From: Armatimonadia bacterium | GTDB taxonomy: Bacteria > Armatimonadota > Zipacnadia > Zipacnadales > JABUFB01 | Length of the DNA: 64,000 nucleotides | Assembly: GCA_039679385.1 (NCBI GenBank) | Contig: JBDKVB010000017.1 | Span: 5,399 to 69,398 of the forward strand | Direction: 5' to 3' | Shown here: one piece after another, positions 6,585 to 46,588 of the stretch | Layout: the number at the start of each line of letters is the position of its first letter | Position numbering within the stretch: the first letter of the stretch is position 1 | Notes under the pieces: generated by a model | Database searches by the model: none | Told to the model about the DNA's origin: nothing | What the model saw: only the letters and a program-made list of their open reading frames with translations | Position numbers and translations under genes: made by a program

Positions 6585-7892
6585 GTGTCGACGGACGTCT
6601 ATCCCAGTGAGATGGAGAACCTGCTTCAGAACGTTGAGCCCCAGACGCGGTCTGTGTGGCTCATGGAACGGGCAGGTGAGAGGTTAGGTCTTCCCACCCA
6701 CGAGATCCACGAGTTGGTCGCCCCGCAGCAGGTGACGGCCTTCCGGATCCCGTGCAAGATACTCGGGAAGGTCGTGAACTTCTGGGGCTGCCTGTCGCTA
6801 CACAACTCGGCGCGTGGTCCCTTCAAGGGCGGGATTCGTCTCGCCTCGGACGTGACCATCTGGGAGACGATTGAGCTCTCTCGGCTGATGACACTCAAGT
6901 GCGCCGTGTGTGACGTGGAGTTCGGCGGCGGCAAGACGGGCATCCGGGTCGACATGGCCCAGATGTACGAGCTCTTCGGCCGCAAGCCGCGCGACCTGGC
7001 CTTTGAGAAGATCATCTCGCTGGACGCCGTGGAGTACTACGCGCAGCACTTCCGCGATGTCTTCAGCAGGCACACCTACATCCCTGCCCCCGACATGGGC
7101 ACCGGGCCGGATGAGATGGCCTTCATCTACAACGAGACCCAGGACCCGGCGTCGGTCACGGGCAAGGGTGACGGAGTACAGGGTTGGCTGCCGGGTCGTA
7201 AGGAGAGCACGGGGATCGGCTGCTCCTATGTGACTTTGCGGATGCTGCAGGAGGGGCTCGGCATCGATCCTGCCGGGGCGTCGGTGGCGATCCAGGGCTT
7301 CGGCAACGTTGGCCGCCCACTGGCCGTCGACCTGGCAGCCCACGGGTGCCGCATCGTGGCGATCACGGACCTGTATGGCGGCGTCTATAACTCTGACGGT
7401 CTCGACATCGATGGGCTGCTGGAGCATTTCGGTAAGGAGGCCACGGTCGGGGGCTTTGCCGGAGGTCAGCCGATGGAGGGCAAGAGTCTGTTCCGTGTCG
7501 AGGCGGATGCGGTGATTCCGGCGGCAGCAGGCGGCGTCATCAACCAGGAGGTTGCCTCTGAGCTGGCGGCGCGGTGCGTGGTGGAAGCCGCCAACATGCC
7601 CACGACTGTGCAGGGCATGCAGGTGCTCGAGGAGCGCAAGATTCCGGTCGTGCCGGATATCCTGGCCAACGCCGGCGGCGTGATCGCGTCGATGCTCGAG
7701 TACTCGAGCTCGCTGTCGGCGATCAAGCCGAGCCGGGAGGGCGTATATCAGGTGGTGCGGGAGAAGATCGGCGAGAACTTCGACCTGGCGTCGGAACGGT
7801 GCCGGAGCGAACAGGTGAGTCTGACACAGGCTGCGGTGGAAATCGCCGTAGAACGGGTATACAAGGTAATGAAGGGACGGCGAATGCTCTAG
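6585..7892 (+). CDS. gdh: Glutamate dehydrogenase (Glu/Leu/Phe/Val dehydrogenase family)
   Basis: KGGIRLASDVTIWETIELSRLMTLKCAV...FGGGKTGI catalytic-lysine region; C-terminal NAD(P) Rossmann GFGNVG. GTG start at 6585, 8 nt after AGGAGG. About 435 aa. Confidence 0.85.
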   Translation: MSTDVYPSEMENLLQNVEPQTRSVWLMERAGERLGLPTHEIHELVAPQQVTAFRIPCKILGKVVNFWGCLSLHNSARGPFKGGIRLASDVTIWETIELSRLMTLKCAVCDVEFGGGKTGIRVDMAQMYELFGRKPRDLAFEKIISLDAVEYYAQHFRDVFSRHTYIPAPDMGTGPDEMAFIYNETQDPASVTGKGDGVQGWLPGRKESTGIGCSYVTLRMLQEGLGIDPAGASVAIQGFGNVGRPLAVDLAAHGCRIVAITDLYGGVYNSDGLDIDGLLEHFGKEATVGGFAGGQPMEGKSLFRVEADAVIPAAAGGVINQEVASELAARCVVEAANMPTTVQGMQVLEERKIPVVPDILANAGGVIASMLEYSSSLSAIKPSREGVYQVVREKIGENFDLASERCRSEQVSLTQAAVEIAVERVYKVMKGRRML

Positions 7893-8058
7893 CCGGGCGT
7901 TTTGGCCTGAGAGGGCCTGGCTCGGAGCGAGTTCCCCGGCCTTGCAGCAAGGTCAGTGGCGGCAGGGCGCGGAATAGGTCTGGTGCAGAGCCGCCGGGAC
8001 GCCTGGCCGGGGCGTATGTTACCGGCTTGTGGAAGCCGTTTGCAGGGCGGAGGCATGC

Positions 8059-8087
8059 TGGACAGTTGTGCCGAATACTGCTATTCT
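8059..8087 (+). promoter_or_regulatory. Candidate sigma70-type promoter (TGGACA-N17-TATTCT) for the low-complexity protein locus
   Basis: Hexamers and 17-nt spacing read from the sequence. The predicted TSS near 8094 leaves room for a GGGAGG RBS at 8133-8138. Confidence 0.35.
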
Positions 8088-8146
8088 AGCACATAGAACA
8101 AATGGCGGACGCATCGCTTGCGTACCCCACTTGGGAGGCGAGCCTC

Positions 8147-9223
8147 TTGCGGTGCCCACTTACCGGTACTGTGCTACTTCTGTGCGTAATTCTGAGCGTA
8201 GGTTACGCGCAGGAGGTCAAGGTCGAGTATTTCGCGGCGGACCCGGCAAAAGCGATTGACCTGAATGCTCCAGACCTCAAGAGCGAGATGCTCGATCTGG
8301 GCATTGTCATCGCGAATGTGTCGGACAATGCGGCGGTAATGGACCAGGTCCTGGCCCAGACCCGCGAGAAGCCGGTGAAAGCGGTCTGCTACGCGGTACG
8401 GATCACCAACCAGACCGGTAGCCCGATTCCGCTGAGCTACGACACCGTCAATCTTGCCTCGGGAACCTGGCAAGAGGTGGACGCTGACTTCACCAATCCC
8501 ACCTTCGACAAGGCGAGTCCGGTGACGGAGTGGGCCGGTGCGAAGTCTATCTTCGCCAAGGGCAAGACCCTTGCGGATGGCGCGACGGTGGACGGTGTGG
8601 TGTTCTACGAGCTGCCCAAGGAGACCGCGTCGACCGGCGGGATGCTGGGCGCTTCCATGGGCTCTGGGATGGACATGGGCGGCATGATGGCGGCAGCCCC
8701 GGCGCCGCAGGAGCCGCCACGCCGCATCCAGTACGTTGCGCCCGCGTCCCTGAAGGTCAAGGCTGCCGAGCCGCGTGAGGCACCGGATCTTCTGCAGGAC
8801 CTCGACCTGGAGTGGACGAGCGTTTCGTCGCTCAGCGCGCCTCCGGGTGGCAAGCCCCGGATCTTCCCGGGCATGGGCAATGTGGATGACAACACGCCCC
8901 TGCGCGTGGGGACGCCGGGTGCTCTGAAGGCCGCTCCGAAGAGCCCGGTTGAGGCCAGCGTGAACCTTGTGGGCGAGCAGCCGGCAGCCGGAATGGGTGG
9001 CATGCCTGGGATGTCGGGCATGGGCGGCAGCATGGACATGATGGGGATGCCCAGCGGAATGCCCGGGATGCCTGGAATGCCTGGTATGGGCGGCGGCATG
9101 CCGGGGATGCCCGGAGCGCCTGGTGGTCCGGAGATGGCGCCCGGTGCGCCGTCTATGCCTGGCGAGATCCCGGAAACAGGCGGAAAGCGTCCGCGTCGCC
9201 CAGGTGCGGGGCCGGAAGAATAG
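8147..9223 (+). CDS. Secreted hypothetical protein with a C-terminal Met/Gly/Pro-rich low-complexity tail (MPGMPGMPG, MGGM repeats)
   Basis: TTG start 8 nt after GGGAGG gives the signal peptide MRCPLTGTVLLLCVILSVGYA-QEV; the ATG at 8102 is the alternative. Last ~70 aa are almost only M, G, P, S, A. No recognisable domain. Confidence 0.6.
   Translation: MRCPLTGTVLLLCVILSVGYAQEVKVEYFAADPAKAIDLNAPDLKSEMLDLGIVIANVSDNAAVMDQVLAQTREKPVKAVCYAVRITNQTGSPIPLSYDTVNLASGTWQEVDADFTNPTFDKASPVTEWAGAKSIFAKGKTLADGATVDGVVFYELPKETASTGGMLGASMGSGMDMGGMMAAAPAPQEPPRRIQYVAPASLKVKAAEPREAPDLLQDLDLEWTSVSSLSAPPGGKPRIFPGMGNVDDNTPLRVGTPGALKAAPKSPVEASVNLVGEQPAAGMGGMPGMSGMGGSMDMMGMPSGMPGMPGMPGMGGGMPGMPGAPGGPEMAPGAPSMPGEIPETGGKRPRRPGAGPEE
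9049..9115 (+). repeat. 9-bp periodic tandem repeat (ATGCCnGGn) encoding MPG/MGG units
   Basis: Direct reading: agcggaatgcccgggatgcctggaatgcctggtatgggcggcggcatgccggggatgcccgga. A similar repeat (cccggaatg x2) occurs at 9541-9585 in the next gene. Confidence 0.7.
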
Positions 9224-9465
9224 CTAAAGGCGGGTCGCCGTTGAGGTGTGCCCACCGTGGGGCTCGAAGTAGCCCGCTGCCACAAGAAGAGTCGCAGGGA
9301 CCGCCAGCCTGGCAACGGGCTGGTGCCTGCGGTTGTAGCCTAGTGTGATGTTGCACGGACGGCACGAAGCTCCCGGTCGTGGCCGTCTGAAAGAGGTGTA
9401 CCGACGTTGCTCCCGCGGCCTCTGTCGCCGCGACCTCCGATGCAGAACGCAGGGAGAGCTGACCG

Positions 9466-12400
9466 ATGAGATCACGCATGCAGTGGACCGCCTGCCTGGC
9501 ACTCACCCTCCTGGTGACTAGCGGCGCCCTGGCACAATTCCCCGGAATGCCCGGAATGCCGGGCGGAGGCGCAATGCCCGGGGACCTGAGCCAGTTACTG
9601 GGGCAGTTGGGTGGCATGATGGGTGGCGGCATGGAAGGCGCAGGGATGGGCATGGCGGCGGCGCCCGCCCCCAGCAAGTACATCTCCCCGCTGGTTCCCC
9701 TGTGCTGGGCAGTGGGCCGGTCGCAATACCCCGGCATCGCCTGCCTGTACGCGACCAAGCAGCAGAAAGCCCAGCTTGAGGCCCTGATTCGTCAGGTCGC
9801 CCCGAGCATCGAAGGGCGCTACTGGGTCAAGTTCGCCGACGTCACCGTTGATACCGATCCCCCCAGCTTCATCCGTGAGGTGCTCGCCGCCAAGTACCGC
9901 CTCCCCAAGGGCGGCGGCGGTGCGGCTGGAGCGGCCGCCGGTATGGAAGGCGGCAGCGCCGAGGCCGGTGCAATGGGAATGGGCATGGGGATGGAGGGCT
10001 CCGGCATGGCTGGAGCGGCGGCTGCCGGCAGCGTCTCCGATAAGGAACTCAAGGTCGAGGCCCGGCGTGCGGCTCCCTGCATCGTCATCTTCGGCAAGGA
10101 CATGTTCAGCCAGGGCGCAGGCGCTGCGACACCCGCTGCAGCAGCAACCGCCGCGATGCCCATGGAAGGCGGCAGCATGGACGCCAGCGGGATGATGGGT
10201 GGCGCCATGGGCGGCACTGCAGCTCCGGCGGCCGGCGGCAGCAAGTGGTCCCTGATGGACCGCAGCTTCATGGTCTACTGGTCCTTCGTCGGCAACAAGG
10301 AAGTCCCGACCCCGGAAATCCTGCGCTTCGTCCTCGACGCCGTGGGCGACCGTCAGGCCGGCATCGACCGCTTCGCGCGGCAGCTCAAGCAGGACAACAA
10401 GAACGCGAGTGTGACGCTGGAACTGGCTCGCGCTTACGTCCGCGCTCTGGAGCGCGGCAAGTCCTTCCTGCCGGGGCTCGGACTTAGCGCCGACCCGGCT
10501 CGTGCCCGGGTCGTCCAGCAGAATCAGTACATGGCGGACTACCTCCTGGCCCGCGCGGAGACCCTTGGCGGCGGCCGAAGCCTCGTGCGTGATATCCGCG
10601 ACGAGCAGGCCAAGCTCGCGGGCTCCTTCCGCTACTGCCCGCCGACAAGCCTCACTCCTATGCTGAGCCAGTACTTCCCGGGCATCGTGGGCTACTACCA
10701 GAATCAGGGCCAGCGTCTGCAGCTAGAGGCCTTGCTCGACACGCCCGCCGTCCAGCAGCAGATGAACAACGGCCACTACTGGTGCAAGCTGGTTAACCTC
10801 GTCTCGAAGGACACCGCCAAGGACACCAGCGTCATCGGCATGGTTCAGGACGAGAAGCTGGACGCCGAGATTGAGAACTACCCGGCCCTGGTCCTTTGCG
10901 GCCAGGACATCTTCAAAGAGGGCGACCCGGTCACTCCTGCCCAGGCAGCAGCAGCCGGTGCAAGCGCCGGCGGAGCAGGGATGGGCATGGAGGGGATGGC
11001 GGGCGCGCCTTCCGGTTCCGGCATGGAGACCGGCGGAGCGGCCGCGACACCCCAGGGCTCGACCTCCACTGATGACGGCAAGCTGACCGGCTGGATCCTC
11101 GGTGGCGCCGGAGCCGCTGCAGCCGGCACGACCACGGCGGCCATGCCCGGTGGTGCCAGCGGCAGCGCACCGGAGGGCATGCCCTCTGGTGGCGAGGCGA
11201 TGGCTGAAGGCACGATGCAGACCGCTGCGTCGGCCGTCGGCGAGATGACCTGGAGCGACTGGGACTATCGCCAGCCCAACCGCATGGCGTACCTGATGCA
11301 GTACGTCCTGTTCCAGGGCGCTCGAAGCGCCAAGGCCATTCCGAGCAGCGCAGACCTGGCCGCCAAGATGCAGACGGCCGTCACCATCGACAACGCCGCT
11401 CGTGCACTCAAGAACGACAAAGAGCATGACGACATCGATCTTCTCCTGACCGTCGGTCAGGGCTTCGTCGACCTCAAGCAGCACTACATGGCGGACTACT
11501 TCCTGGCTCGCGCAGAGAAGTGCGCCAAGGATCTGGACAAGAAGATCGCCGAGACCGAGAAGCGCCTCGCCGACGACGAGTTCGTCTCGGACTCCGAGCG
11601 CAACACCTGGAAGGACCGCTACGCCCGGCAGCGCGATGAGTTCGTCGTCTACCGCGATCGCATTCGCCAGCTCCGCATCGCCCTGCTCACGAGCTTCGGC
11701 AACGAGCAGCCGACGAACCAGATACCGGTTCTCCTCACCGACTTCCCCGGCATCATCGTCTTCTACGAGGGCGACTCCAGCTATGACCCGTCAGCAGCGG
11801 CCGAAGAACCGGATGCCAAGACGCCGGTCGTCAGCCGCCAGTCGGGCGCGGTTCGCTCCCTGCTGAGCCAGCCGCACATCGCCAAGTACATCGAAGACAA
11901 GTACTGGGTGAAGTACATCCGGGTCAAGTCCAGTGACAAGGATCCGCGGCCCGGTATCACGCCCAAGCCAGACTGGATGACCCGGCTCCCGGCAGTGCTC
12001 ATCATGGGCGCCGACCTCTTCCATACTGTCGGCCCGCGGGTAGCCGGTGGTAAGACGGCTGCCGGAGCGGCCGCAGCAGGAAGCGCTGAGACAGGCGCGA
12101 TGGCCGGCGGCGTGGCACCCGGCATGGAGATGGGCGCCGGCTCGATGGGCCCCGGTATGGAGGGTGCCGCAGGTGGCGCCGCTGCCGGTGTGTCCTCAAC
12201 AGGCGACCCGGCTGAGTGGCTCCCGCCTGCAGGTGGTGGAGCAGCAACCACCGCTCAGGCTGGCGCTGAGGGCTCGATGAGTGCTGAGGCCGGGGGCGCC
12301 ATGCCCATGGCAACCGCGGCAGCTCCTGCCGCCGGTGGGCCTCCGCAGCCGATCGGCATCCTCACCGGCACCTCGCCGATGGACGGCATGTTCGCCCAGT

Positions 12401-13713
12401 GGGCAGACTATGGTCACGAGAACCAACTGGGTCTGCGCCAGGGCTATGTGATGGTGCACTGGTCCTACATGGGCCGCAGCCAGCTCCCGCGGGAGTGGAA
12501 CCAGCAGGCGCACAGCGCCAGCCAGAAGCCGGAAGACTTCGACTACTTCCGCCGGCTCCTGGAGCGCACCTACGAGGTCGATCGCCTTGCGCACCAGGCC
12601 TACGAGGAGGAGCGACTGGCCTCGGGGATGACGCCCGCAGCCACTCCTGCCGCCACGACGGTGCTTGACCTGGCCTCCGAGTACGTTGGCCTCCCCGGAG
12701 CCTACATGGCTGAGTACATGCTGTCGCGCGCCGAGTACCTGGTGCAGCAGAAGTGGGAACCGGTGACCTCTCGCGTCACGAAGGCTGCAGACGCGGCCCT
12801 CGCCGAGCAGGCCAAGGGACGAGACTTCACCGGCGGCGACTACCTGGTAGAGATCCGCAACTTCCTGCAGCAGACACCCGAGGACCGGTCGGCCTGGATG
12901 GCCTCTCCGGCCCCGAAGGCATGGTTGGCGGCAACCGTCGCGCTCCGCCGCATGGGGATGCTTCCGACCGTCTACCTGCCGCAGTATGTGTCCCTGCAGT
13001 ACGCTTCAGCCGCCGGTGACGGGCAGGGCGCCATCGCCTCCTCCTCGCTGATGGGCCGCCCGATCCCGGCGTACTTCCAGCTCCCGCCGGAGAAGCTGAC
13101 CGACACCCAACTCAGGGAGGTTCGCACCTCTGCGATGAACGCGCTGTCGGCCGGCGCGATCGGCGTGGACCCGAAGGCGCTGTGGTCGCGGCTCCTGCTG
13201 GTTGAGACCGAACTGCGCGCTCGCCGCGGTGCCACCGACATCGATAGCTCCTGGCGCGAGATCATGTCCCTGTGGACGAGCCGCCAGCAGACCAGCACCG
13301 GCTACTCCGACAAGATACTCGAGGCGCTGGACAGGGCAGTCGACGGCGAGATCAACGTCCTCCGGGCCCTCAACGATGCGGGCATGCGCATGCAGGCAGC
13401 GCCGGGCTCCGGTGCGGACATGGCGAACCGGACGATGAGCGCCGCCACGGAGGAGAACCCGGACTGGGCGGGCAGCCCGCTGAGCGAAGTCGCCAGTCTG
13501 CGCGACTACCTCAAGGCCCGGCCGCACGATCGCGCTGCGGACCAGGCCCGTTACCTGATGGGCGTCATGCTCGAGACCGGGCCGACGGCAAACGACATGC
13601 GGCCGCTCACCAACGCAGCCTCTGAGCAGTACGGCAAGCTCAAGCCGATGGACACTCCGCCGCACTGGTGGCGTTTCGGCTATGGCCGCTGGGACCGCTT
13701 CCAGGCCAACTAA
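9466..13713 (+). CDS. Giant secreted hypothetical protein (1415 aa) with three tandem ~360-aa modules separated by Gly/Ala/Met-rich low-complexity linkers, plus a unique ~265-aa C-terminal region
   Basis: RBS AGGGAGAG 7 nt upstream. Signal peptide MRSRMQWTACLALTLLVTSGALA-QF. Motifs recur three times: YWVKFADV / YWCKLVNL / YWVKYIRV; MVYWSF / YLMQYV / VMVHWSY; YMADYLLARAE / YMADYFLARAE / YMAEYMLSRAE. No known family recognised. Confidence 0.8.
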   Translation: MRSRMQWTACLALTLLVTSGALAQFPGMPGMPGGGAMPGDLSQLLGQLGGMMGGGMEGAGMGMAAAPAPSKYISPLVPLCWAVGRSQYPGIACLYATKQQKAQLEALIRQVAPSIEGRYWVKFADVTVDTDPPSFIREVLAAKYRLPKGGGGAAGAAAGMEGGSAEAGAMGMGMGMEGSGMAGAAAAGSVSDKELKVEARRAAPCIVIFGKDMFSQGAGAATPAAAATAAMPMEGGSMDASGMMGGAMGGTAAPAAGGSKWSLMDRSFMVYWSFVGNKEVPTPEILRFVLDAVGDRQAGIDRFARQLKQDNKNASVTLELARAYVRALERGKSFLPGLGLSADPARARVVQQNQYMADYLLARAETLGGGRSLVRDIRDEQAKLAGSFRYCPPTSLTPMLSQYFPGIVGYYQNQGQRLQLEALLDTPAVQQQMNNGHYWCKLVNLVSKDTAKDTSVIGMVQDEKLDAEIENYPALVLCGQDIFKEGDPVTPAQAAAAGASAGGAGMGMEGMAGAPSGSGMETGGAAATPQGSTSTDDGKLTGWILGGAGAAAAGTTTAAMPGGASGSAPEGMPSGGEAMAEGTMQTAASAVGEMTWSDWDYRQPNRMAYLMQYVLFQGARSAKAIPSSADLAAKMQTAVTIDNAARALKNDKEHDDIDLLLTVGQGFVDLKQHYMADYFLARAEKCAKDLDKKIAETEKRLADDEFVSDSERNTWKDRYARQRDEFVVYRDRIRQLRIALLTSFGNEQPTNQIPVLLTDFPGIIVFYEGDSSYDPSAAAEEPDAKTPVVSRQSGAVRSLLSQPHIAKYIEDKYWVKYIRVKSSDKDPRPGITPKPDWMTRLPAVLIMGADLFHTVGPRVAGGKTAAGAAAAGSAETGAMAGGVAPGMEMGAGSMGPGMEGAAGGAAAGVSSTGDPAEWLPPAGGGAATTAQAGAEGSMSAEAGGAMPMATAAAPAAGGPPQPIGILTGTSPMDGMFAQWADYGHENQLGLRQGYVMVHWSYMGRSQLPREWNQQAHSASQKPEDFDYFRRLLERTYEVDRLAHQAYEEERLASGMTPAATPAATTVLDLASEYVGLPGAYMAEYMLSRAEYLVQQKWEPVTSRVTKAADAALAEQAKGRDFTGGDYLVEIRNFLQQTPEDRSAWMASPAPKAWLAATVALRRMGMLPTVYLPQYVSLQYASAAGDGQGAIASSSLMGRPIPAYFQLPPEKLTDTQLREVRTSAMNALSAGAIGVDPKALWSRLLLVETELRARRGATDIDSSWREIMSLWTSRQQTSTGYSDKILEALDRAVDGEINVLRALNDAGMRMQAAPGSGADMANRTMSAATEENPDWAGSPLSEVASLRDYLKARPHDRAADQARYLMGVMLETGPTANDMRPLTNAASEQYGKLKPMDTPPHWWRFGYGRWDRFQAN

Positions 13714-13729
13714 GGTACTCACGACGAGG

Positions 13730-13758
13730 GACCTTCTTCTCTCAGAGTGAAGAAGGTC
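13730..13758 (+). terminator. Hairpin (10-bp stem gaccttcttc/gaagaaggtc) immediately after the giant gene
   Basis: Perfect inverted repeat 17 nt after the stop. No strong U-tract, so it may be a stabiliser rather than a terminator. Confidence 0.35.
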
Positions 13759-13782
13759 TCCTCTGTCTCCAGGACGAACTAG

Positions 13783-13818
13783 CAGGCCGCGGCTGATACA
13801 GTCGCGGCCTGTCCTTTT
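13783..13818 (+). terminator. Intrinsic terminator (9-bp stem caggccgcg/cgcggcctg, 11-nt loop, tail tcctttt)
   Basis: Inverted repeat plus T-tract read from the sequence. Confidence 0.55.
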
Positions 13819-13908
13819 GTAGCGCGCGCTGAGCAAGCGCGGGAGGCATGTGCACGCCCTGCGGGCCGATCTGTGCCGCAAGGCGACCATCCCTGGCCTT
13901 CGCGTTGC

Positions 13909-13938
13909 TTGACGGGTTGCGTGGAATGCGGCTATACT
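13909..13938 (+). promoter_or_regulatory. Near-consensus sigma70 promoter TTGACG-N18-TATACT driving the third low-complexity gene
   Basis: Hexamers read directly. Almost identical in architecture to the ilvD promoter at 40292. Confidence 0.5.
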
Positions 13939-14001
13939 CATTTGGCGAGCCACTTCCATATAGCCCTCGAGTCGCCGCAAGCCTTTCGAGGTGGTTTCTT
14001 C

Positions 14002-15363
14002 ATGCGCTTTAAACGGCTGCTGCCCTACGCAATCGCCATCGTCGTTGTGGGCTTTGCGTGCTCCGTCGTCACCGTGACCAAGCCCTTCGCCCAGGGAGAG
14101 CCCAGTGCCGCGCCTCCCACCGATGCCGCAAGCGGCGCGCCGCCTGAGGCAGCCAGCGGCTCGCCCTCCGGCGAACCCGGCGCAGGGCCCGCTCAGGGCG
14201 CTGCCGGTGGTGGCGGTGCAGGTTATTCCTGGAGCGAGGCGACCATGCCGGAAGAGCTCCTCATGACCTATGGGGAGTTCCTGACCCAGGAGGCCCAGGC
14301 TCCGGTGCCGCTTCCGGAGTTCTACCTGCTAGAGGACAACGGGACGCCCAAGAAGTACACGCGCAACCAGTGGTACGGCCTCAGCCGGATCTATGCCGAC
14401 CAGCCGGTCAAGCCCGACGTGAAGCTCGTCGGCACCCCCGGCAACAGCCTGTGGAACCAGGTCTACCTGGAGGCTGCGGTCAAGCACAATGAGGTCAATG
14501 CCATGTGGTCGTGCTGGCAGGATGCGACCACCAACTTCTGGTTCGAGGTTGGGTACCCGCGCATCGGCCCGCAACTGCTGCAGTATGACTGGACGCGCAA
14601 GGCCATCCGCAACCCGGACGGGACCATCCGCTGGGGACGCTGGGAGGCCACGCTGCCCGACCGCTTCACCATCGTGGTGCCGGTGGTCATGCATGTGAAG
14701 GACCGCTGCCAGCAGACCTTCGGTACGCGGTTCTACAACCGCATGAAGCCCTTCGATAACATGGGCGATGGCCGCTCGCCCTTCAAGTTCATGACCTACT
14801 CCGGCGGCTACTACCGCCCCAACACCTTCTACCTGGCCGATGAGGCCATCCAGGTGTGGGCGGGTCTCTGGAGTGACCTGCGGGTCCAGCTCCGTCTGTT
14901 CGATCCGACGAACACTGAGGTTGTCAGGGCAGCCCAAGGCTCGGGCCTCAGCCCGGCGATCTTCACTCAGATGGTGCATCCGCCAGTCATCAACTACCAG
15001 CCCCGCTACCGGCTCCTCCTGCCTCATGAGGACGACCGGTTCAAGGGTGGCCGTTTGGCGCTCGAGGGTCAGGAAGGCTGGTACTTTGAGTTCTCCTTCA
15101 CCCTCACCCGCGACCAGTTGCGCTCCGTCACCAACGCGGAGGCTCGCCTCGTGTGCATGGTGAACGGCGCTCCGACACCGCCGCAGCGCATGAAGTTCCT
15201 GGCCGGTGCAGCAGGCGCAGCCGGTGGCGCTGCGGGTGCTGCCGGCGCCCCTGGTGCCCCTGGCGCCCCGTCCGGTATGCCGGGAGAGCCGGGCGCACCC
15301 GGCGGCAGTGCCGAAGCACCCAGTGGTTCGCCTTCCGAACCGGCGCCCGCTGTGGCTCCCTAA
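14002..15363 (+). CDS. Hypothetical protein with an N-terminal signal-anchor, Ala/Pro/Gly/Ser-rich tracts at both ends and a central ~330-aa Trp/Tyr-rich domain of unknown function
   Basis: ATG at 14002 (MRFKRLLPYAIAIVVVGFACSVV TM helix) preferred over the in-frame GTG at 13873. C-terminus is GAAGAAGGAAGAAGAPGAPGAPSGMPGEPGAPGG. No recognised family. Confidence 0.7.
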   Translation: MRFKRLLPYAIAIVVVGFACSVVTVTKPFAQGEPSAAPPTDAASGAPPEAASGSPSGEPGAGPAQGAAGGGGAGYSWSEATMPEELLMTYGEFLTQEAQAPVPLPEFYLLEDNGTPKKYTRNQWYGLSRIYADQPVKPDVKLVGTPGNSLWNQVYLEAAVKHNEVNAMWSCWQDATTNFWFEVGYPRIGPQLLQYDWTRKAIRNPDGTIRWGRWEATLPDRFTIVVPVVMHVKDRCQQTFGTRFYNRMKPFDNMGDGRSPFKFMTYSGGYYRPNTFYLADEAIQVWAGLWSDLRVQLRLFDPTNTEVVRAAQGSGLSPAIFTQMVHPPVINYQPRYRLLLPHEDDRFKGGRLALEGQEGWYFEFSFTLTRDQLRSVTNAEARLVCMVNGAPTPPQRMKFLAGAAGAAGGAAGAAGAPGAPGAPSGMPGEPGAPGGSAEAPSGSPSEPAPAVAP

Positions 15364-15404
15364 GGCCGGACAACAACTCGCTGCACATCCATAGGCAGAA
15401 CAAA

Positions 15405-15429
15405 GGGCTCGCCGCGTGCGAGCCCTTTT
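15405..15429 (+). terminator. Intrinsic terminator (stem gggctcgc/gcgagccc, loop cgcgt, tttt)
   Basis: Perfect 8-bp hairpin plus U-tract 42 nt after the stop at 15363. Confidence 0.6.
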
Positions 15430-15461
15430 CGTACCCATCGACCTGTCGGCAGGTGAGACCC

Positions 15462-16610
15462 ATGAAGGACTTCGCGATCCGCAGTCCACAGGAAGTGCGT
15501 TTCGGTTGGGGGGCGATTGGTGGCCTCCCGCAGGCTGTGGCCCGTTTGGGTGCGCGTCCGCTGGTGGTGACCGGCGGGGCCTCGATCGAGGCTGGTGGCC
15601 GGCTGGCAACCATCCTCACCTCGCTGACCGACGCCGGTCTCACACCCGTCCGTTTCCGGGGCGTTGAGCACGACCCCTCAGTGGAAACAATCGACCGTGG
15701 GCGCGGTGTGCTGGCTGCAGAGGGATGCGACTGCGTGGTCGCGATCGGTGGCGGAAGCGTGATGGATGCTGGGAAGGCTATCGCGGGGCTTGCCGGGGAG
15801 TCTGCGCCCACGGCCGACTTCGTCGCGGGCAGGGCCATCACCGGTCGCTGCCTGCCGATGGTGGCCTGCACCACGACCTCGGGCACCGGCTCCGAGGTGA
15901 CCCATGTGGCGGTGCTGACGGACTCTTCGCGTCAGGTCAAGGCCAGCATCCGCACCGAGGGGATGATGCCTGCGGTCGCGATCGTGGACCCGGAGCTAAC
16001 GGTGTCGATGTCTCCGGAGACGACTGCCTTCACCGGGCTTGATGCCCTCACGCAGGCCCTTGAGTCCTATATCTCCGTCGGCGCGAATCCCTTCAGTGAC
16101 CCGCTTGCCCTGCAGGCTGCGACCCTTCTCACGGGGTCGGTACGGAAGGCTGTGCGAGAGGGCAGCGACCGTGCCGTCCGCGAGAACATGGCTGCCGGGA
16201 GCATGCTTGCGGGTCTGGCCCTGGCGAGTGCCAGACTGGGCCTGGTGCACGGCCTGGCTCATCCCCTGGGGGTGCTGTACCACCTCGCCCACGGGCAGGC
16301 CTGTGCGCTGCTGCTTCCGCACGTGCTGGAGTTCAACGCCCCGGTGGCCGAGGCCAAGCTCGCGTGTCTTGCCCGTGCCTGCGGCATCTCCTCCAACCCG
16401 GTCGACACTGCAGCCGCCTACATGCTGGTTGTATGGGTGCGCGAGTTGTGCGCCGAACTGGGCTGCCTGCAGCCACTGGCGGACCTGGGTCTTCGGCGAG
16501 AGGACTTCGGCGCCATCACGGCGGCCACAATGGCCTCGGGTTCCACCAAGGCCAATCCCCGCCCCGTCACCGAGGCCGATGTGACCCGTATCCTCAATCG
16601 TGCCGCCTAA
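15462..16610 (+). CDS. Iron-containing (group III) alcohol dehydrogenase
   Basis: GGGSVMDAGKAIA glycine motif and two conserved His-rich regions (HGLAHPLG...H). Start trimmed to the ATG at 15462; the listed ORF runs further upstream. Confidence 0.8.
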   Translation: MKDFAIRSPQEVRFGWGAIGGLPQAVARLGARPLVVTGGASIEAGGRLATILTSLTDAGLTPVRFRGVEHDPSVETIDRGRGVLAAEGCDCVVAIGGGSVMDAGKAIAGLAGESAPTADFVAGRAITGRCLPMVACTTTSGTGSEVTHVAVLTDSSRQVKASIRTEGMMPAVAIVDPELTVSMSPETTAFTGLDALTQALESYISVGANPFSDPLALQAATLLTGSVRKAVREGSDRAVRENMAAGSMLAGLALASARLGLVHGLAHPLGVLYHLAHGQACALLLPHVLEFNAPVAEAKLACLARACGISSNPVDTAAAYMLVVWVRELCAELGCLQPLADLGLRREDFGAITAATMASGSTKANPRPVTEADVTRILNRAA

Positions 16611-22434: not shown

Positions 22435-23922
22435 CTAGCGTACCGTTACCCGCAACTCCTGGAAGCCGCGCAAGGTGGTGTACTGGGAGTCGGGGACGAT
22501 CTCAGCCCACAACTGGTGCGGCCCACGTTTGGCCTTCCAGGGGACCGAAACGGTGACGATCCCAAAGCCCTCTCTGCGCAGGGTCTCGGCCGGCTCCTTG
22601 CTGCGGGTGTTGAGCCCGTCCGGGTCGACCCACCGAGCTGCGGGCAGCCGCGTGATGAACTGCGGCCCGCCGATCGGTTCGCCACCCTTCGCGGGGTCGC
22701 CGTCCCAGAATCGCACGCGGACCTGCCGAGCGTCCATTCCCCCAACGTTATGAACCGTCGCCTGAAGCCTCACGGTTCCCTGGTCCACCGGCTGGTGGTC
22801 GGAGAGCGTCAGGTCGCCCTCCGAGAAGAAGCCGACCACCGGGCGGACGAAGTAGCGGAAACAGCACTCGTTGGCACGCTTCAGGACCGCGTCGCTGCAG
22901 CGGCCGGTAGTGAAGAACGCCAGGCCGCGCATCTCGGGGCCCTGCATACGCACTCGACGGACCTGTTCCTCGAGCTCCTCCGGGGTCACGTCGCCGAAGT
23001 CGCTGGAGATCGACAGGCCAAGGATGGTCTTCTTGATCACCTGCATCGAGCGGGCAACCTGGACGCGCTGAGTCAGGTAGTCCTCGAAGGAGTGTAGGTC
23101 ATTCCAGGCGCGGAAGTAGTTCTCGTACACCTCACACAGGATGACGTCGGCGCTGTCGCGGAAGAGGTTGCACTCCAGCGGTGTGAGGGAGCCGAACTGC
23201 CAGACGGCCACGAACTGGTCGGGGCGATCGAGCCGGGCCTGCTTGAGGATCTTACCGAACTCCAGGGCCAGGGCCGTCTGCTCCGGATGCTGGTCCCACA
23301 TCCCCAGCTCGTCGATGGCGATGCCGTCCCAGGGCCGGGTGTCAGTGTAGTCTTTGAGGATACGAGGCGCAAGGGCACCCATGTCCAGCCCCGGCGGGAT
23401 GTGCTCCCAGCGGGTGCCGCCGAAGTAGCTCACTCCGTCGGCCCTCTTGAGCGCTACTACGCCACGGGCATGGAGGGCCTCGATCTCGGCGGCTGAAGCG
23501 GTGAGATGATGGGTCATCCACTCCACTTCGGGGCGTGTGGGGCCATACCAGCCGAAGAACACGGGCTGCGCCACCACGGGAAGCAGGAGCCTCGCTACCG
23601 GCTGACCTGCCTCGGTCTGGCGCACGATCACGCGGTAGAGGCCGGGGAGACCAGCGCGCCATTCGACGCTCGGCTCGAAGGGTCGGTTGGGGTCAGGGGC
23701 GACTCGGGTCTTGCCGACGGGGCGCTCTCGACCCTCCTGCTCCACAGAGAAGATGACATCCCCGGAGATGGGCGCGGAGGCTGCGGCGGTCGGACAGGCG
23801 GCCAGGCGGATCACGTCGCCACTGCAGGGCACGCGACTGGAGACCGCGATCTGCAGCGGGATATCGGCCGCGAAGCAGACTGCCATCATCATGGACAGCC
23901 CGGCGGCCAGCAGCCCTCTCAT
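22435..23922 (-). CDS. Secreted hypothetical protein; possible TIM-barrel glycoside-hydrolase-like domain plus a C-terminal CARDB/Ig-like beta-sandwich
   Basis: Signal peptide MRGLLAAGLSMMMAVCFAADIP. C-terminal LQATVHNVGGMDARQVRVRFWDG resembles a CARDB-like domain. Assignment tentative. Confidence 0.6.
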   Translation of the reverse strand: MRGLLAAGLSMMMAVCFAADIPLQIAVSSRVPCSGDVIRLAACPTAAASAPISGDVIFSVEQEGRERPVGKTRVAPDPNRPFEPSVEWRAGLPGLYRVIVRQTEAGQPVARLLLPVVAQPVFFGWYGPTRPEVEWMTHHLTASAAEIEALHARGVVALKRADGVSYFGGTRWEHIPPGLDMGALAPRILKDYTDTRPWDGIAIDELGMWDQHPEQTALALEFGKILKQARLDRPDQFVAVWQFGSLTPLECNLFRDSADVILCEVYENYFRAWNDLHSFEDYLTQRVQVARSMQVIKKTILGLSISSDFGDVTPEELEEQVRRVRMQGPEMRGLAFFTTGRCSDAVLKRANECCFRYFVRPVVGFFSEGDLTLSDHQPVDQGTVRLQATVHNVGGMDARQVRVRFWDGDPAKGGEPIGGPQFITRLPAARWVDPDGLNTRSKEPAETLRREGFGIVTVSVPWKAKRGPHQLWAEIVPDSQYTTLRGFQELRVTVR

Positions 23923-28239: not shown

Positions 28240-29274
28240 ATGTCGCAGGAACCGCTTGAGCTCCGGCCGATGACGATCGCGGACATCATCGACGCGACCA
28301 TTCGTCTGTACCGGCACAACTTCGGGCCGCTGCTGGGGATCGCAGCGATCGTGCAGGTGCCGCTGATGGTGCTGCAGGTGGCCGCTTCCTTCTTCATCTT
28401 CCGCCGGGCAATGACGGCACCGGGCGAGGAGATCCCCTGGGACCAATTGGCCGTCGGTGGTGCGGGGTTCCTGGTCGCCTTCTTCATCGCGCTGTTACTC
28501 CTGCCGTTGGGAGAGGCAGCGCTGGCGCTGGCCATCTCGGACCGCTACCTAGGCTACCCCATCACCGTCTCGGGAGCCTACCAGGCCGCCCTCAAGCACT
28601 GGGGAGCAGTCCTGTGGACCTCGCTGGTCGTGGGCCTTTGGGTGTACCTCTGCTTCGCTATCGGACTGGTGCTGCTCATCCTCCCCGGCCTGGTCGTGCT
28701 CGTGTGGCTGTATATCCGCTACATGTTCGCCCCCTCCATTGTGGTTGTGCTCGAAGGTCGCCGGGGCCTTGATGCCATGCGGCGCAGTTGGGACCTCACC
28801 TCGGGGTACTTCTGGCCGGTCCTGGGGACCATGACCATCCTGGTGCTCATGATCAGCGTCGGCAGTCAGGGCATCACCTGGCCGCTGCAGATGGTGCTCA
28901 TGGTGGTCACCGGCCATCCCGAGAAGTTCGCGATGGCCCAGGTCATCACCCAGGCGGTGGCGGCTACTCTGGCAGTTATCCTGCGTCCGGTGATGATGCT
29001 GGGGCAGGTGCTTCTGTACTACGATCTGCGCATCCGCAAGGAGGGCTTCGACCTGATGAGGATGGCTGAGGCCCTCGGCAGGCCGTCGCCCGTAGTGCCT
29101 GCGCCGACCGTGGAGCAGCCCCTGTGGCCGACCCAGGGCCTGCCGCAAACGGAGCAGCCCGCAGCCAAGACGCCGAGCACCACCACACTGCAGGAGCCGG
29201 TGAACCCGCTGATGCCGCCGGTGCCGCCACCACCGCCGCTGTTCACGCCGCCACAGGACGAAGGCAAGAAGTAG
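28240..29274 (+). CDS. Polytopic membrane protein of unknown function with a Pro-rich C-terminal tail
   Basis: Six or more hydrophobic segments. C-terminus PLMPPVPPPPPLFTPPQDEGKK. Confidence 0.65.
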   Translation: MSQEPLELRPMTIADIIDATIRLYRHNFGPLLGIAAIVQVPLMVLQVAASFFIFRRAMTAPGEEIPWDQLAVGGAGFLVAFFIALLLLPLGEAALALAISDRYLGYPITVSGAYQAALKHWGAVLWTSLVVGLWVYLCFAIGLVLLILPGLVVLVWLYIRYMFAPSIVVVLEGRRGLDAMRRSWDLTSGYFWPVLGTMTILVLMISVGSQGITWPLQMVLMVVTGHPEKFAMAQVITQAVAATLAVILRPVMMLGQVLLYYDLRIRKEGFDLMRMAEALGRPSPVVPAPTVEQPLWPTQGLPQTEQPAAKTPSTTTLQEPVNPLMPPVPPPPPLFTPPQDEGKK

Positions 29275-42551: not shown

Positions 42552-44261
42552 ATGAGCAACCGCACCTTCACCGGCGCCGATGGGATGCTGAGGGTCTTCG
42601 AAGAGGAAGGCGTGGACGTGATCTTCGGCTTCCCCGGTGGGTCCGTCATTCCCATCTACGACAAGATCTATCACGCGGTGGCCGAGGGCCGAATCCGCCA
42701 CATCCTGCCGCGCCATGAGCAGGGCGGCATCCATGCTGCCGACGGCTATGCGCGCTCGACGGGCAAGGTCGGCGTAATGGTCGCCACCAGTGGCCCCGGC
42801 GCGATGAACCTGGTGACGGGCCTGGCAACCGCCTATATGGATTCGGTACCGATCGTCGCCGTCACCGGTCAGGTCAAGACCTCGGCCATCGGCAAGGACG
42901 CCTTCCAGGAGGCCGACACGATCGGCGTCACGATGCCGGTGACCAAGCACAACTACCTGGTCAAGAGCGTGGCCGACCTTCCGGAGATCACCCGAGAGGC
43001 CTTCTACATCGCCCGCACGGGGCGTCCCGGACCGGTGGTCATCGACGTGCCCTTCGATGTCAGCGCCGGTCCCTGCAACTGGGTTGATGCCCCGCGTAAG
43101 GAGATCCCCGGCTATGCACCGCCCGGCAAGGGTGACCCGGAGGCCATCCGCAAGGCCGCCGAGATGATCTCCAAGGCGGAGAGGCCGATCCTGTACGTGG
43201 GTGGCGGAATCATCGCTGCCGACGCCGCTCCCCTGCTGAAGGAACTCGCCGAGAAGGCCAACCTCTTCGTGGTTCACACCATGATGGGCAAAGGCGCCTT
43301 CCCCGAGACCCATGACCTGTCCATGGGGATGCCGGGCATGCACGGGATGGCCTACGGGAGCCATGCGCTCCAGCACGCGGGCCTGATCATCGCCATCGGC
43401 GCACGCTTCGATGACCGCGTTACCGGCGACCCGACCAAGTTTGCACCTGAGGCCGAGGTCATCCACATCGACATCGACCCCGCCGAGATCAACAAGGTCC
43501 GGCGGGCGCAGGTTGCGATCGTCGGCAATGCTCGCCTCGTGCTCGAGGAGCTCCTGCCGCAGATCCAGCCCCGTCAGCCGGGAGAGTGGGAAGCGCACCT
43601 GCGCGAGTGGCGTGCCGCCCATCAGCTCTCCTACAACGCAGACCCGGAGGACGGCGTCTCGCCGCAGTACGTCATCGAGCAACTCTGGGAAGCGACGAGG
43701 GGCGAAGCGATCGTCTGCACCGAAGTCGGTCAGCACCAGATGTGGGCCGCGCAGTACTACCGCTGCCAGTTCCCGCGCCAGTTCATCTCCAGCGGCGGCC
43801 TCGGCACGATGGGCTTCGGCTTCCCGGCGGCCATCGGTGCGCAGGTCGGCAACCCGGGCAAGGTCTGCGTGGACATTGCCGGCGACGGCTCCATTCAGAT
43901 GTGCATCCAGGAACTGGCAACCGCCGTCATCAACAAGCTGCCGGTCAAGGTGGTCATCCTCAACAACGGCTACCTGGGGATGGTGCGCCAGTGGCAGGAC
44001 CTCTTCTACGGCAAGCGCTACAGCGGCGTTGACCTGACCGGCAACCCGGACTTCGTCAAGCTCGCCGAGGCCTACGGCGCAACGGGATACCTGGTGACAG
44101 ACAAGTCGCAGGTGCGGCCGACGCTGGAGAAGTCCCTGGAGATCACCGACCGGCCGTGCGTCATCGACGTTCGCACGCCGCCGGAAGAGAACGTGTTCCC
44201 GATGATTCCGGCCGGCGCGACCTTCGCAGACATGATGGAAACCGCGCCCGTGGGCATCTAG
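42552..44261 (+). CDS. ilvB: Acetolactate synthase (AHAS) large catalytic subunit, copy 1
   Basis: ThDP-enzyme motifs GDG...NN; HEQGGIHAADGYAR; 569 aa. Confidence 0.9.
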   Translation: MSNRTFTGADGMLRVFEEEGVDVIFGFPGGSVIPIYDKIYHAVAEGRIRHILPRHEQGGIHAADGYARSTGKVGVMVATSGPGAMNLVTGLATAYMDSVPIVAVTGQVKTSAIGKDAFQEADTIGVTMPVTKHNYLVKSVADLPEITREAFYIARTGRPGPVVIDVPFDVSAGPCNWVDAPRKEIPGYAPPGKGDPEAIRKAAEMISKAERPILYVGGGIIAADAAPLLKELAEKANLFVVHTMMGKGAFPETHDLSMGMPGMHGMAYGSHALQHAGLIIAIGARFDDRVTGDPTKFAPEAEVIHIDIDPAEINKVRRAQVAIVGNARLVLEELLPQIQPRQPGEWEAHLREWRAAHQLSYNADPEDGVSPQYVIEQLWEATRGEAIVCTEVGQHQMWAAQYYRCQFPRQFISSGGLGTMGFGFPAAIGAQVGNPGKVCVDIAGDGSIQMCIQELATAVINKLPVKVVILNNGYLGMVRQWQDLFYGKRYSGVDLTGNPDFVKLAEAYGATGYLVTDKSQVRPTLEKSLEITDRPCVIDVRTPPEENVFPMIPAGATFADMMETAPVGI

Positions 44262-46077: not shown

Positions 46078-46563
46078 ATGAAACACACCATCTCAGCCAG
46101 GGTCGAGAACAAGCCGGGCGTGTTGGCGCGGATGTCCGGGCTGTTCGCTCGCCGTGGCTTCAACATCGACAGCCTGGCCGTCAGTACCACCGAGGACCCG
46201 GGCGTGTCTCGCATGACGATCACGGTCACCGGCGACGAGTTCACGCTGGAGCAGATCTGCAACCAACTGGTCAAGCTAGTGGACGTAATCGAGGTCGTTG
46301 ACCACACCAACGACGCCTACGTGGACCGCGAACTGTGCTTGTGCAAGGTCTGCTGCGACGCCCAGACTCGCCACGACATCATCGACCTGTGCAACATCTT
46401 CCGCGCGGACGTGGTCGATGTCGGCAACGAGACCCTGATCCTGCAGATCACCGGCGACGAGGACAAGATTGACGCCTTCGTTCGCACGATGGAGCAGTTC
46501 GGTGTCCGTGAGATGGTCCGCACGGGCAAGATTCTCCTGGTCCGAGGAGTGCAGCGAACCTAG
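46078..46563 (+). CDS. ilvN: Acetolactate synthase small regulatory subunit (ACT domain)
   Basis: MKHTISARVENKPGVLARMSGLFARRGFNIDSLAV motif. Confidence 0.85.
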   Translation: MKHTISARVENKPGVLARMSGLFARRGFNIDSLAVSTTEDPGVSRMTITVTGDEFTLEQICNQLVKLVDVIEVVDHTNDAYVDRELCLCKVCCDAQTRHDIIDLCNIFRADVVDVGNETLILQITGDEDKIDAFVRTMEQFGVREMVRTGKILLVRGVQRT

Positions 46564-46588
46564 GGTAGTCGACCGGAGGTGTTCGGCC

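Follow-up and report, generated by a model that had tools for sequence, protein, structure and literature searches.

Outside the cytoplasm Met, and not Cys, handles Cu(I), as in CusF, CueO, PcoE and SilE. The Met-rich segments of SilE, PcoE, CueO, CopA and CopI are Met/His or Met/His/Asp in composition (PMC5008109, PMC13308877). We analysed three consecutive plus-strand genes, p1, p2 and p3, which lie within a 64-kb stretch of DNA (the window; 65% GC) from the genome of an uncultured member of the Armatimonadia (Armatimonadota), and whose products carry low-complexity tracts. Their closest described counterparts depend on the property compared: by chemistry these are the Met-rich regions of SilE/PcoE and CueO/PcoB (PMC5008109, PMC12041951, PMC12509749), by composition abductin, the GGM/GGMP tails of chaperones and Met-rich phase-separating domains (PMC8394241), and by fold the redox-inactive thioredoxin-like repeats. 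None of the comparators tested for membership could accommodate the three proteins. The locus is well supported as two adjacent, separable units restricted to Armatimonadia, a p1-p2 operon and a p3 gene, and p2 as a giant secreted tandem scaffold of three to five modules, each predicted to be thioredoxin-like alpha/beta plus helical (tetratricopeptide repeat, TPR-like). We tentatively favour the possibility that p1-p2 build an extracytoplasmic hydrated brush or gel scaffold layer, and weigh it below against its rivals.

With the SilE/PcoE sponges, the CueO/PcoA inserts, the intrinsically disordered region of PcoB and the Mets motifs of Ctr1, p1 and p2 share export, disorder, high Met density, MxM/MxxM spacing, and segments that are hypervariable from species to species in both length and sequence. 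Unlike SilE/PcoE, CueO and PcoB, however, their tracts lack His and Cys and are dominated by Gly, and they are neither small proteins nor inserts in an oxidase; neither homology nor a nearby copper or silver operon or regulator connects them; no homology of p1, p2 or p3 to SilE/PcoE, CusF or CueO/PcoA members was detected by sequence or structure. Abductin is a Gly/Met-rich elastomer built on GGFGGMGGGX (PMC13052691). It shares with the (GGM)4M tail of GroEL, the GGMP repeats of Hsp70 and the Met-rich prion-like domains of Pbp1/ataxin-2 and TDP-43 (C-terminal domain) a disordered, Gly- and Met-rich composition in which Met is nearly the sole hydrophobic residue, as in the tracts described here; such segments may plausibly behave as cohesive or weakly hydrophobic. 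These segments, however, are parts of a eukaryotic matrix or cytosolic tails, never form closed loops in a folded domain and show no homology, and abductin's means of cross-linking through Phe, Tyr and Lys are missing from the tracts studied here.

A further parallel is MrpX of Azospira suillum, which is reportedly a small periplasmic Met-rich peptide that scavenges oxidants together with MsrP/YedY and is encoded beside the reductase and a sigma/anti-sigma pair. Like MrpX, p1-p3 are exported and Met-rich and might take up HOCl or H2O2 by forming Met sulfoxide; unlike it, they are 358-1415 residues long, and no MsrP/YedY-like gene, MsrA/B gene or such regulator was found in the window or related loci. 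As to fold, the tandem modules of p2, with their predicted thioredoxin-like topology, no CxxC and helical repeats after each alpha/beta domain, resemble the b/b' domains of PDI and calsequestrin, which are thioredoxin folds lacking active-site cysteines, and the chaperone CnoX/YbbN, which combines thioredoxin and TPR domains.

Architecture of p2 and of its partner p1

The three genes are as follows.

8147-9223, plus strand: p1, an open reading frame (ORF) of 358 amino acids (aa), with an alternative ATG at 8102
9466-13713, plus strand: p2, an ORF of 1415 aa
14002-15363, plus strand: p3, an ORF of 453 aa, open from 13873

Identical proteins are on deposit as hypothetical proteins of metagenome-assembled genomes named 'Armatimonadia bacterium'. 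The homologues are all from Armatimonadia, and all related genome contigs originate from Armatimonadia/Armatimonadota. The GC content at third codon positions (GC3) of p1, p2 and p3 is 0.77-0.83, as in the adjoining genes, and their reading frames are kept in orthologues. All three proteins begin with an export-type N-terminus, basic and then hydrophobic, whose Kyte-Doolittle maximum over 12 residues (2.0-2.8) compares with 0.95-1.2 for cytoplasmic neighbours. The ORFs, GC3 and N-termini agree with the claim of an earlier note on this DNA that three consecutive plus-strand genes carry export signals, and by these sequence criteria p1, p2 and p3 are confirmed as real coding genes for exported proteins. 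No paralogue of any of them was found elsewhere in the window.

p2 could be divided into the following segments.

Residues 1-23, plus strand: signal peptide, with its boundary between ALA and Q
Residues 24-72, plus strand: N-terminal G/M tract
Residues 70-394, nucleotides (nt) 9673-10647, plus strand: module R1
Residues 146-192, nt 9901-10041, plus strand: loop 1a, a G/A/M tract within R1
Residues 213-262, nt 10102-10251, plus strand: loop 1b, a G/A/M tract between the strands PCIVIFGKDMF and FMVYWSFVG
Residues 395-752, nt 10648-11721, plus strand: module R2
Residues 488-580, nt 10927-11205, plus strand: loop 2, the G/M/A tract of R2 between predicted beta3 and beta4
nt 11083-11106, plus strand: island of loop 2, DDGKLTGWILGG, invariant in three orthologues
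Residues 753-1110, nt 11722-12795, plus strand: module R3
Residues 859-964, nt 12040-12357, plus strand: loop 3, the G/M/A tract of R3
nt 12205-12228, plus strand: island of loop 3, GDPAEWLPP, conserved
nt 12796-13710, plus strand: helical C-terminal domain, ending in the conserved Trp-rich motif PPHWWRxGxGRW

The repeat units were recognised as homologous by hmmsearch between units (E about 1e-10 to 1e-5, in a small database). Each module comprises, in order, an 'A' part whose motifs include FPGIVGYY, YWVK and YPALVLCGQDIF, a G/M/A tract of 90-120 residues, and a 'B' part with the motifs MVYWSFVG and YMADYLLARAE. An AlphaFold2 (AF2) model of R2, built on a 10-row module alignment, arranged the elements in the order beta (12-17), alpha, alpha, beta (45-50), alpha, beta (80-86), loop (92-214), beta (216-223) and four long helices. 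The predicted local distance difference test (pLDDT) was 75-91 in the ordered parts and 20-30 in the loop, and the predicted template modelling score (pTM) was 0.58. This is the element order of a thioredoxin fold; beta3 is preceded by a Pro, and the tract interrupts the hairpin that beta3 forms with beta4. Foldseek returned nothing significant for the model (best E 0.63), its list consisting mostly of thioredoxin-fold proteins, and hhalign of a p2 module against E. coli TrxA gave a non-significant probability of 0.4%, with only the cis-Pro strand aligned. There was no thioredoxin-type Pfam match to p2, and among PDB sequences a profile search reached no more than peroxiredoxins at E about 0.6. 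Weak TPR matches were obtained (TPR_19, E 0.047; MamA, E 0.4). At the beginning of alpha1, CxxC and any other redox Cys are missing from every module in all homologues (alignment A4). Because the fold searches agree only faintly with the model, we call the modules thioredoxin-like by predicted topology only, redox-dead and not demonstrably members of the family. The earlier statement that the ordered domains match nothing stands by sequence but not for p2 as modelled, in which a thioredoxin-like part and a helical part recur from module to module.

Each large loop of the window protein carries one central island, DGKLTGWILGG or GDPAEWLPP. A PT(D/E)WLP island was also found in P0021, a p2 fragment from locus L014, and centrally in all three large loops of an intact 1896-aa p2 homologue (L020) contributed by a metagenome scan. 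One conserved island per large loop is kept across lineages that are about 40-55% identical. It is well supported that each module projects a disordered Gly/Met/Ala loop of 90-150 residues with a single central PT(D/E)WLP island. The number of modules varies, being three in the window, four in the single intact ORF of L020 and about five in L014, and such variation is typical of structural or ruler-like proteins. In L014 (8091-14907) the five-module homologue, about 2200 aa long, is split into three overlapping ORFs, and these frame breaks caused its fragments P0021 and P0022 to be reported as separate proteins. The frame changes fall inside Gly/Met-coding tracts of a contig with 3x coverage and are most likely assembly or sequencing errors.

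Relatives of these proteins are few. A first homologue search with p2 was swamped by low-complexity words and was repeated with a tract-deleted alignment; three to four p2 relatives were found in the homologue search. When a tract-free p2 repeat profile was run with HMMER against 1.84 billion representatives, five proteins were returned, of which four were real relatives. P0023 (1157 aa, E 4e-12) was rejected as a fragment of a YadA-like adhesin/trimeric autotransporter with five identical 230-residue repeats; its score illustrates how the whole-sequence E-value of a repeat protein can be inflated when the weak scores of single repeats add up. For p3, 17 relatives were found among 5.8 billion clustered proteins. 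The p1, p2 and p3 families are, on the databases searched, very small and lineage-restricted. Neither Pfam nor NCBIfam gave a match to the whole proteins or to their ordered segments alone, and only a sub-threshold DUF4352 hit recurred. Searches of PDB sequences with p1, p2 and p3 profiles were empty or gave low-complexity matches only, among them Rv3716c (E 0.014) and the C1q collagen, which were set aside. Matches to Pfam Metal_resist (CpxP/ZraP-like; E 0.03-0.11) fell on a charged helix of two orthologues, not on a window protein, and were taken as noise. Pfam, NCBIfam, PDB and the HMMER search all agree with the earlier view that, by sequence, the proteins belong to no recognisable family.

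The modular architecture brings to mind an ATP-independent envelope holdase, in which redox-inactive thioredoxin-like plus TPR-like modules, comparable to CnoX/YbbN or to the b/b' domains of PDI, would present Gly/Met 'methionine bristles' to unfolded exported proteins. Such a holdase would be consistent with the predicted topology (beta-alpha-beta-alpha-beta-[loop]-beta-alpha, then helices) and with the TPR matches, and the GGM tails at the C-terminus of GroEL resemble the p2 loops in composition. The G/M(/P) composition likewise agrees with the GGMP repeats of Hsp70 (PMC7926355). However, four real relatives are too narrow a range for a general chaperone, no envelope-biogenesis genes are linked at the loci examined, and the likeness to CnoX/PDI is confined to architecture, since neither sequences nor profiles matched significantly. 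Since it would also leave both the loop islands and p1, the obligate partner of p2, unexplained, we consider a holdase improbable.

p1 was found to contain the following segments.

Residues 1-21, plus strand: signal peptide, with a cleavage-like site between GYA and Q
Residues 22-158, nt 8210-8620, plus strand: beta-rich N-domain
Residues 159-191, plus strand: short G/M tract
Residues 192-275, plus strand: conserved middle segment, LEW..PPGKPRIFPxMGN..DETP
Residues 276-340, nt 8972-9166, plus strand: (G-M-P)-rich tract
nt 9167-9220, plus strand: basic C-terminal motif RPRRPGAG, invariant among orthologues

Translation most likely starts at TTG 8147 and not at ATG 8102, because the orthologues begin with MRC, GGGAGG stands 8 nt upstream and NCBI annotates 358 aa. 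The weak DUF4352 (PF11611) matches fall on the same region of the N-domain in all four orthologues, with a best E of 0.0013; window p1 scored 12.6 bits, under the Pfam cut-off of 25.9 bits. In the L014 homologue the (G-M-P)-rich tract is enlarged to about 130 residues of GMGMP/GAMP repeats. A profile comparison of p1 with p3 revealed no domain in common. It is well supported that p1 is secreted and that it joins a small N-domain, beta-sandwich-like in character, to a (Gly-Met-Pro)n tail and a basic motif at the C-terminus.

Composition and distribution of the tracts

Tracts were defined as stretches with at least 16 of 20 residues in G/M/P/A. In the window they are confined to three of 42 ORFs, with 96 residues in p1, 273 in p2 and 69 in p3, and the four tracts quoted in the earlier note as extreme are present verbatim. 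Related loci, about 285 kb of Armatimonadia DNA, were scanned for the same tracts with at least four Met per 20 residues. The hits were limited to homologues of the three proteins, to shadow ORFs antisense to these and to a single exception, a Gly-zipper-like segment of a zinc-ribbon protein in L014. The shadow ORFs lie opposite the low-complexity coding tracts and are rich in Pro, Ile, Met and Ala (e.g. PGIPGMPPPIPGIPGIPGIP); the long ones arise only from the repeats, and a gene caller could mistake them for genes. Those of the window are listed here.

8605-9315, minus strand: antisense shadow ORF, repeat artefact
9153-9758, minus strand: antisense shadow ORF, repeat artefact
9819-10271, minus strand: antisense shadow ORF, repeat artefact
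10878-11213, minus strand: antisense shadow ORF, repeat artefact
11781-12251, minus strand: antisense shadow ORF, repeat artefact

Over 3383 tract residues from 23 family members, the composition was G 32.5%, A 16.8%, P 13.1%, M 12.8%, I+L+V 4.1% and F+W+Y 1.8%, with H (0.1%), C (0%), D (1.7%), K (1.0%) and Y (0.4%) scarce or absent; the L020 homologue has no His in 621 tract residues. Met makes up about 13% of the tracts against 1.2-3.7% beyond them. It amounts to 12-23% of the p1 tracts and 9-21% of the p2 tracts in every lineage, against 1.2-3.1% outside these tracts, rises to 21-23% in the more distant ones, and varies from 3 to 27% among the p3 orthologues. Those p3 orthologues that adjoin p1-p2 have the Met-poorest tracts (3-8%), and in the window p3 tracts, rich in Gly, Ala, Pro and Ser, Met is 3% (two in 111 residues). 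The counts of MxM and MxxM were 3 and 10 in p1, 10 and 4 in p2, and 11 and 12 in the L014 p1 homologue; the clusters described earlier are therefore real for p1 and p2, and window p3 has none. As had been argued, GC bias does not account for the Met, whose sole codon is ATG in a 65% GC genome and which makes up 13% of tract residues against 2-3% outside. The enrichment, as judged from these sequences, is a selected one and no composition effect. At the DNA level only micro-repeats of two to four copies are present, which rules out recent slippage arrays as the origin of the tracts and indicates that the bias is maintained at the protein level. Trp amounts to 0.8-2.6% of the ordered parts, inside the range of the window, so the description of these domains as Trp/Tyr-rich was not upheld for Trp.

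The earlier note had named two findings that would count against its claim of no known family, namely membership of a collagen-like family and tracts that are generic linkers. Both were tested and neither was found. G-X-Y runs extend to 3-8 triplets at most, in place of the long uninterrupted (Gly-X-Y)n that a triple helix requires, and the repeats mix periods of 3, 4 and 5, which rules out a collagen-like family. Because the tracts are confined to the p1, p2 and p3 families, generic linkers are ruled out for the DNA sampled, that is, the window ORFs and the 285 kb.

It is in this composition that a thioether sink, the main idea of the earlier note, finds its support. The p1/p2 tracts would then be a high-capacity, low-affinity Cu(I)/Ag(I) buffer, in which clusters of three to four Met thioethers wrap the metal as in Mets motifs, or a substrate for sacrificial Met oxidation of the MrpX type, and the modules would merely display the loops. 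The Met levels that p1 and p2 keep in all lineages, their MxM/MxxM spacing (also seen in the L014 p1 homologue), the use of Met as the sole hydrophobic residue despite its single AT-rich codon in such a GC-rich genome, and a location outside the cytoplasm, where Met takes the place of Cys in handling Cu(I), all fit this explanation. However, the tracts contain almost no His, no Cys and little Asp or Glu, and the window p3 tracts have only the two Met mentioned. Known sponges are also small, and a sink would need neither modular scaffolds of 1400-2200 aa nor PT(D/E)WLP islands. We regard a thioether sink as rather doubtful, somewhat less likely than the brush or gel layer that we favour.

Two transcripts and a separable p3

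The following signals flank the genes.

8058-8087 (scan site 8059), plus strand: p1-p2 promoter, TGGACA, 17 nt, TGcTATTCT (extended -10)
13782-13812, plus strand: intrinsic terminator after p2, found in the scan, with a 14-bp stem followed by a U-run (-27.9 kcal/mol, z -6.3)
13909-13938, plus strand: p3 promoter, TTGACG, 18 nt, TATACT
15405-15429, plus strand: terminator-like hairpin after p3, stem GGGCUCGC/GCGAGCCC followed by UUUU (-19.6 kcal/mol, z -4.0)

A consensus scan returned two promoter-like sites, 8059 and 13909, against 0.6 expected. The terminator scan required five T and missed the hairpin at 15405-15429 because this has only four U. At the p1 promoter a 30-nt block, CTGGACAGTTG.G..GA.TACTG.TAT.CT, is invariant in four lineages (window, L007, L011 and L014; alignment A7) whose p1 proteins are only 36-50% identical. 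The block spans the -35, the extended -10 and most of the 17-nt spacer, and this conservation of the spacer suggests that a putative regulator site overlaps the promoter; no palindrome beyond 4-5 bp was found. In the 5' untranslated region (UTR) upstream of p1, the block TTGCGTACCC is conserved in three of the four lineages. Upstream of p3, CTTGAC and TATACT are conserved in six lineages (alignment A8). Scan, folding energies and conservation thus bear out the earlier promoters (8059, 13909) and terminators (13782, 15405), and with both promoters conserved, a layout of two transcripts, p1-p2 and p3, is well supported. In the p3 5' UTR a hairpin was noted at 13963-13995, in which CCCUCG pairs with the Shine-Dalgarno (SD) region CGAGGUGG. 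Both arms are kept in six lineages, without compensatory change and with an unremarkable stability (z -0.98), so that it could reflect translational control or a conserved SD plus chance. No Rfam match was obtained for 7800-15700.

p1 and p2 are adjacent in the window, L007, L011 and L014. The order p1-p2-p3 followed by an iron-type alcohol dehydrogenase (Fe-ADH) gene is kept in two further lineages, L007 and L011 (and their duplicates), and L014 has no p3 within 10 kb of its p1-p2 pair. p3 stands without p1-p2 in L002, L003, L015 and L017. The Fe-ADH gene (15462-16610 in the window) follows p3 on the same strand in L002-L007, L011 and L017; in L015, the most distant lineage, the neighbour of p3 is a glutamate dehydrogenase gene, such as lies upstream of p1 in the window. 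The p3/Fe-ADH adjacency is probably residual synteny, as far as gene order tells. The terminator, the separate p3 promoter and the p3-only loci together split the finding into a p1-p2 operon and an independent p3. Of the earlier proposal of a discrete three-gene unit with two transcripts, the transcripts hold and the single conserved unit does not; nor do all three genes co-occur across related genomes, the p1-p2 pair being conserved and p3 separable.

The segments of p3 are given below.

Residues 1-31, plus strand: N-terminal hydrophobic helix of 20 residues and the motif VT(K/Q)PFAQ (KPFAQ in the window)
Residues 32-76, nt 14095-14229, plus strand: G/P/A/S tract, variable
Residues 77-398, nt 14230-15195, plus strand: conserved alpha/beta core of about 320 residues
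Residues 399-453, nt 15196-15360, plus strand: G/A/P tail, variable

The core, which was compared with the PDB, is strongly conserved and includes the motifs EAAVKHNE and FDNxGxGRSPF. Since a Pro at -3 makes cleavage doubtful, the N-terminus is read as probably a signal anchor. p3 is well supported as a membrane-anchored or secreted protein with its alpha/beta core between two Gly/Pro-rich disordered tracts.

p3 is also the best fit to the proposal that the tracts are lineage-specific flexible linkers or stalks of relaxed composition, with unrelated functions in the ordered domains and with clustering due to synteny. Its N-terminal tract lies where a stalk from anchor to domain would be, its tract Met content is variable, and in most lineages it is independent of p1-p2, with its own promoter and terminator. 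More generally, the tracts show little conservation of either length or sequence, whereas conservation is far higher in the ordered parts. However, p1 and p2 keep their Met density in all lineages, even the distant ones, the p2 tracts are modelled as internal closed loops and not as inter-domain linkers, and these loops hold conserved islands. Bar the Gly-zipper-like segment of L014, no other protein with such tracts occurs in the 285 kb. For the locus as a whole, there is in our estimation a low chance that linkers are the explanation.

The window is otherwise an ordinary stretch of chromosome, with genes for GH116-like, amidohydrolase, SDR, glutamate dehydrogenase and Fe-ADH proteins, a xylose-isomerase-like TIM barrel, a nitroreductase, SMC, FtsY, TldD/PmbA and galactokinase, and an ilv cluster. 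No copper, silver, Msr or metal-sensing regulator gene was found in the window or in L007, L011, L014, L015 and L017, and no P-type ATPase, CusCBA, multicopper oxidase, CopZ/CsoR/CueR or MsrP/Q in the window or related loci. This context argues against the thioether sink, as do the promoter spacers, which are 17-18 nt and not the 19-20 nt of MerR-type promoters; with neither His/Cys nor a genomic link, the sink model is weakened.

Some side observations were made in the same DNA. The ilv cluster contains tandem paralogous genes for thiamine pyrophosphate (TPP) enzymes resembling acetolactate synthase (ALS) at 42552-44261 and 44324-46033, both of 569 aa, and a pentapeptide-repeat gene (46469-47335) separates the gene for the ALS small subunit from that for ketol-acid reductoisomerase. 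The ORFs at 22435-23922 (minus strand), 28240-29274 (plus strand) and 52151-53038 (plus strand) have coding-like GC3 and no Pfam match at E<=1e-5; in the second of these, Met (4.7%) and Pro (9.9%) are rather abundant, without a low-complexity tract.

A possible brush or gel layer

The brush or gel layer was ranked first among the explanations because p2 is a large, conserved scaffold of variable repeat number, its loops contain islands, its obligate partner has a basic tail, and a metal or redox context is lacking. Also in its favour are the export signals, the predicted disorder of the loops between confident strands, the abductin-like composition of the tracts and their confinement to these families, and the conserved pairing and promoter of p1-p2. 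In this proposal p2 would be an elongated extracytoplasmic 'bottle-brush' scaffold, with its closed Gly/Met loops as pliable spacers of weak hydrophobicity. The PT(D/E)WLP islands may serve as stickers, each docking on a helical domain in its own p2 molecule or in a neighbouring one, and p1 as a possible adaptor, tethered to anionic envelope polymers through its basic C-terminus. Together they would form a hydrated layer, as a brush or a gel, either in the periplasm or at the cell surface. Met, the one hydrophobic residue that the loops admit, would adjust how cohesive the layer is and, as a by-product, make it rich in thioethers.

Several points weigh against this proposal. Although the tracts have the Gly (32%), Pro (13%) and Met (13%) of an elastomer, they are nearly without cross-linking residues (K 1.0%, Y 0.4%, C 0%), unlike known elastomers. 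The value of 2P+G in the p2 tracts is about 0.4-0.5, and the proline/glycine rule for elastomers places this beneath the usual elastomer range. The exclusive use of costly Met, where Val or Leu would be cheaper, points to Met-specific chemistry, and this suits the metal/oxidant rival no less than the brush or gel layer. Moreover, that p3 tracts beside p1-p2 are so poor in Met argues against Met-mediated co-assembly of the three proteins.

A bolder version of the brush or gel layer, to which we give only a slight chance, is that p1-p2 constitute a new bacterial extracytoplasmic material, a Met-based cohesive hydrogel in which oxidation switches cohesion or the Cu(I)/Ag(I) load. By analogy, such a hydrogel might be a prokaryotic extracellular counterpart of FG-nucleoporin or abductin-like phases.

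The building blocks of p1 and p2 are known and their combination is new. Only a few lineages of uncultured Armatimonadia have these families, and the practical reach of the finding is limited. Should the functional element be the Gly/Met loops, bacteria would possess an exported Met-based low-complexity material encoded by a compact two-gene module. It would have a defined architecture, with closed loops on a folded repeat scaffold and one docking island per loop. Going by the model, thioredoxin-like hairpins can tolerate insertions of more than 100 disordered residues.

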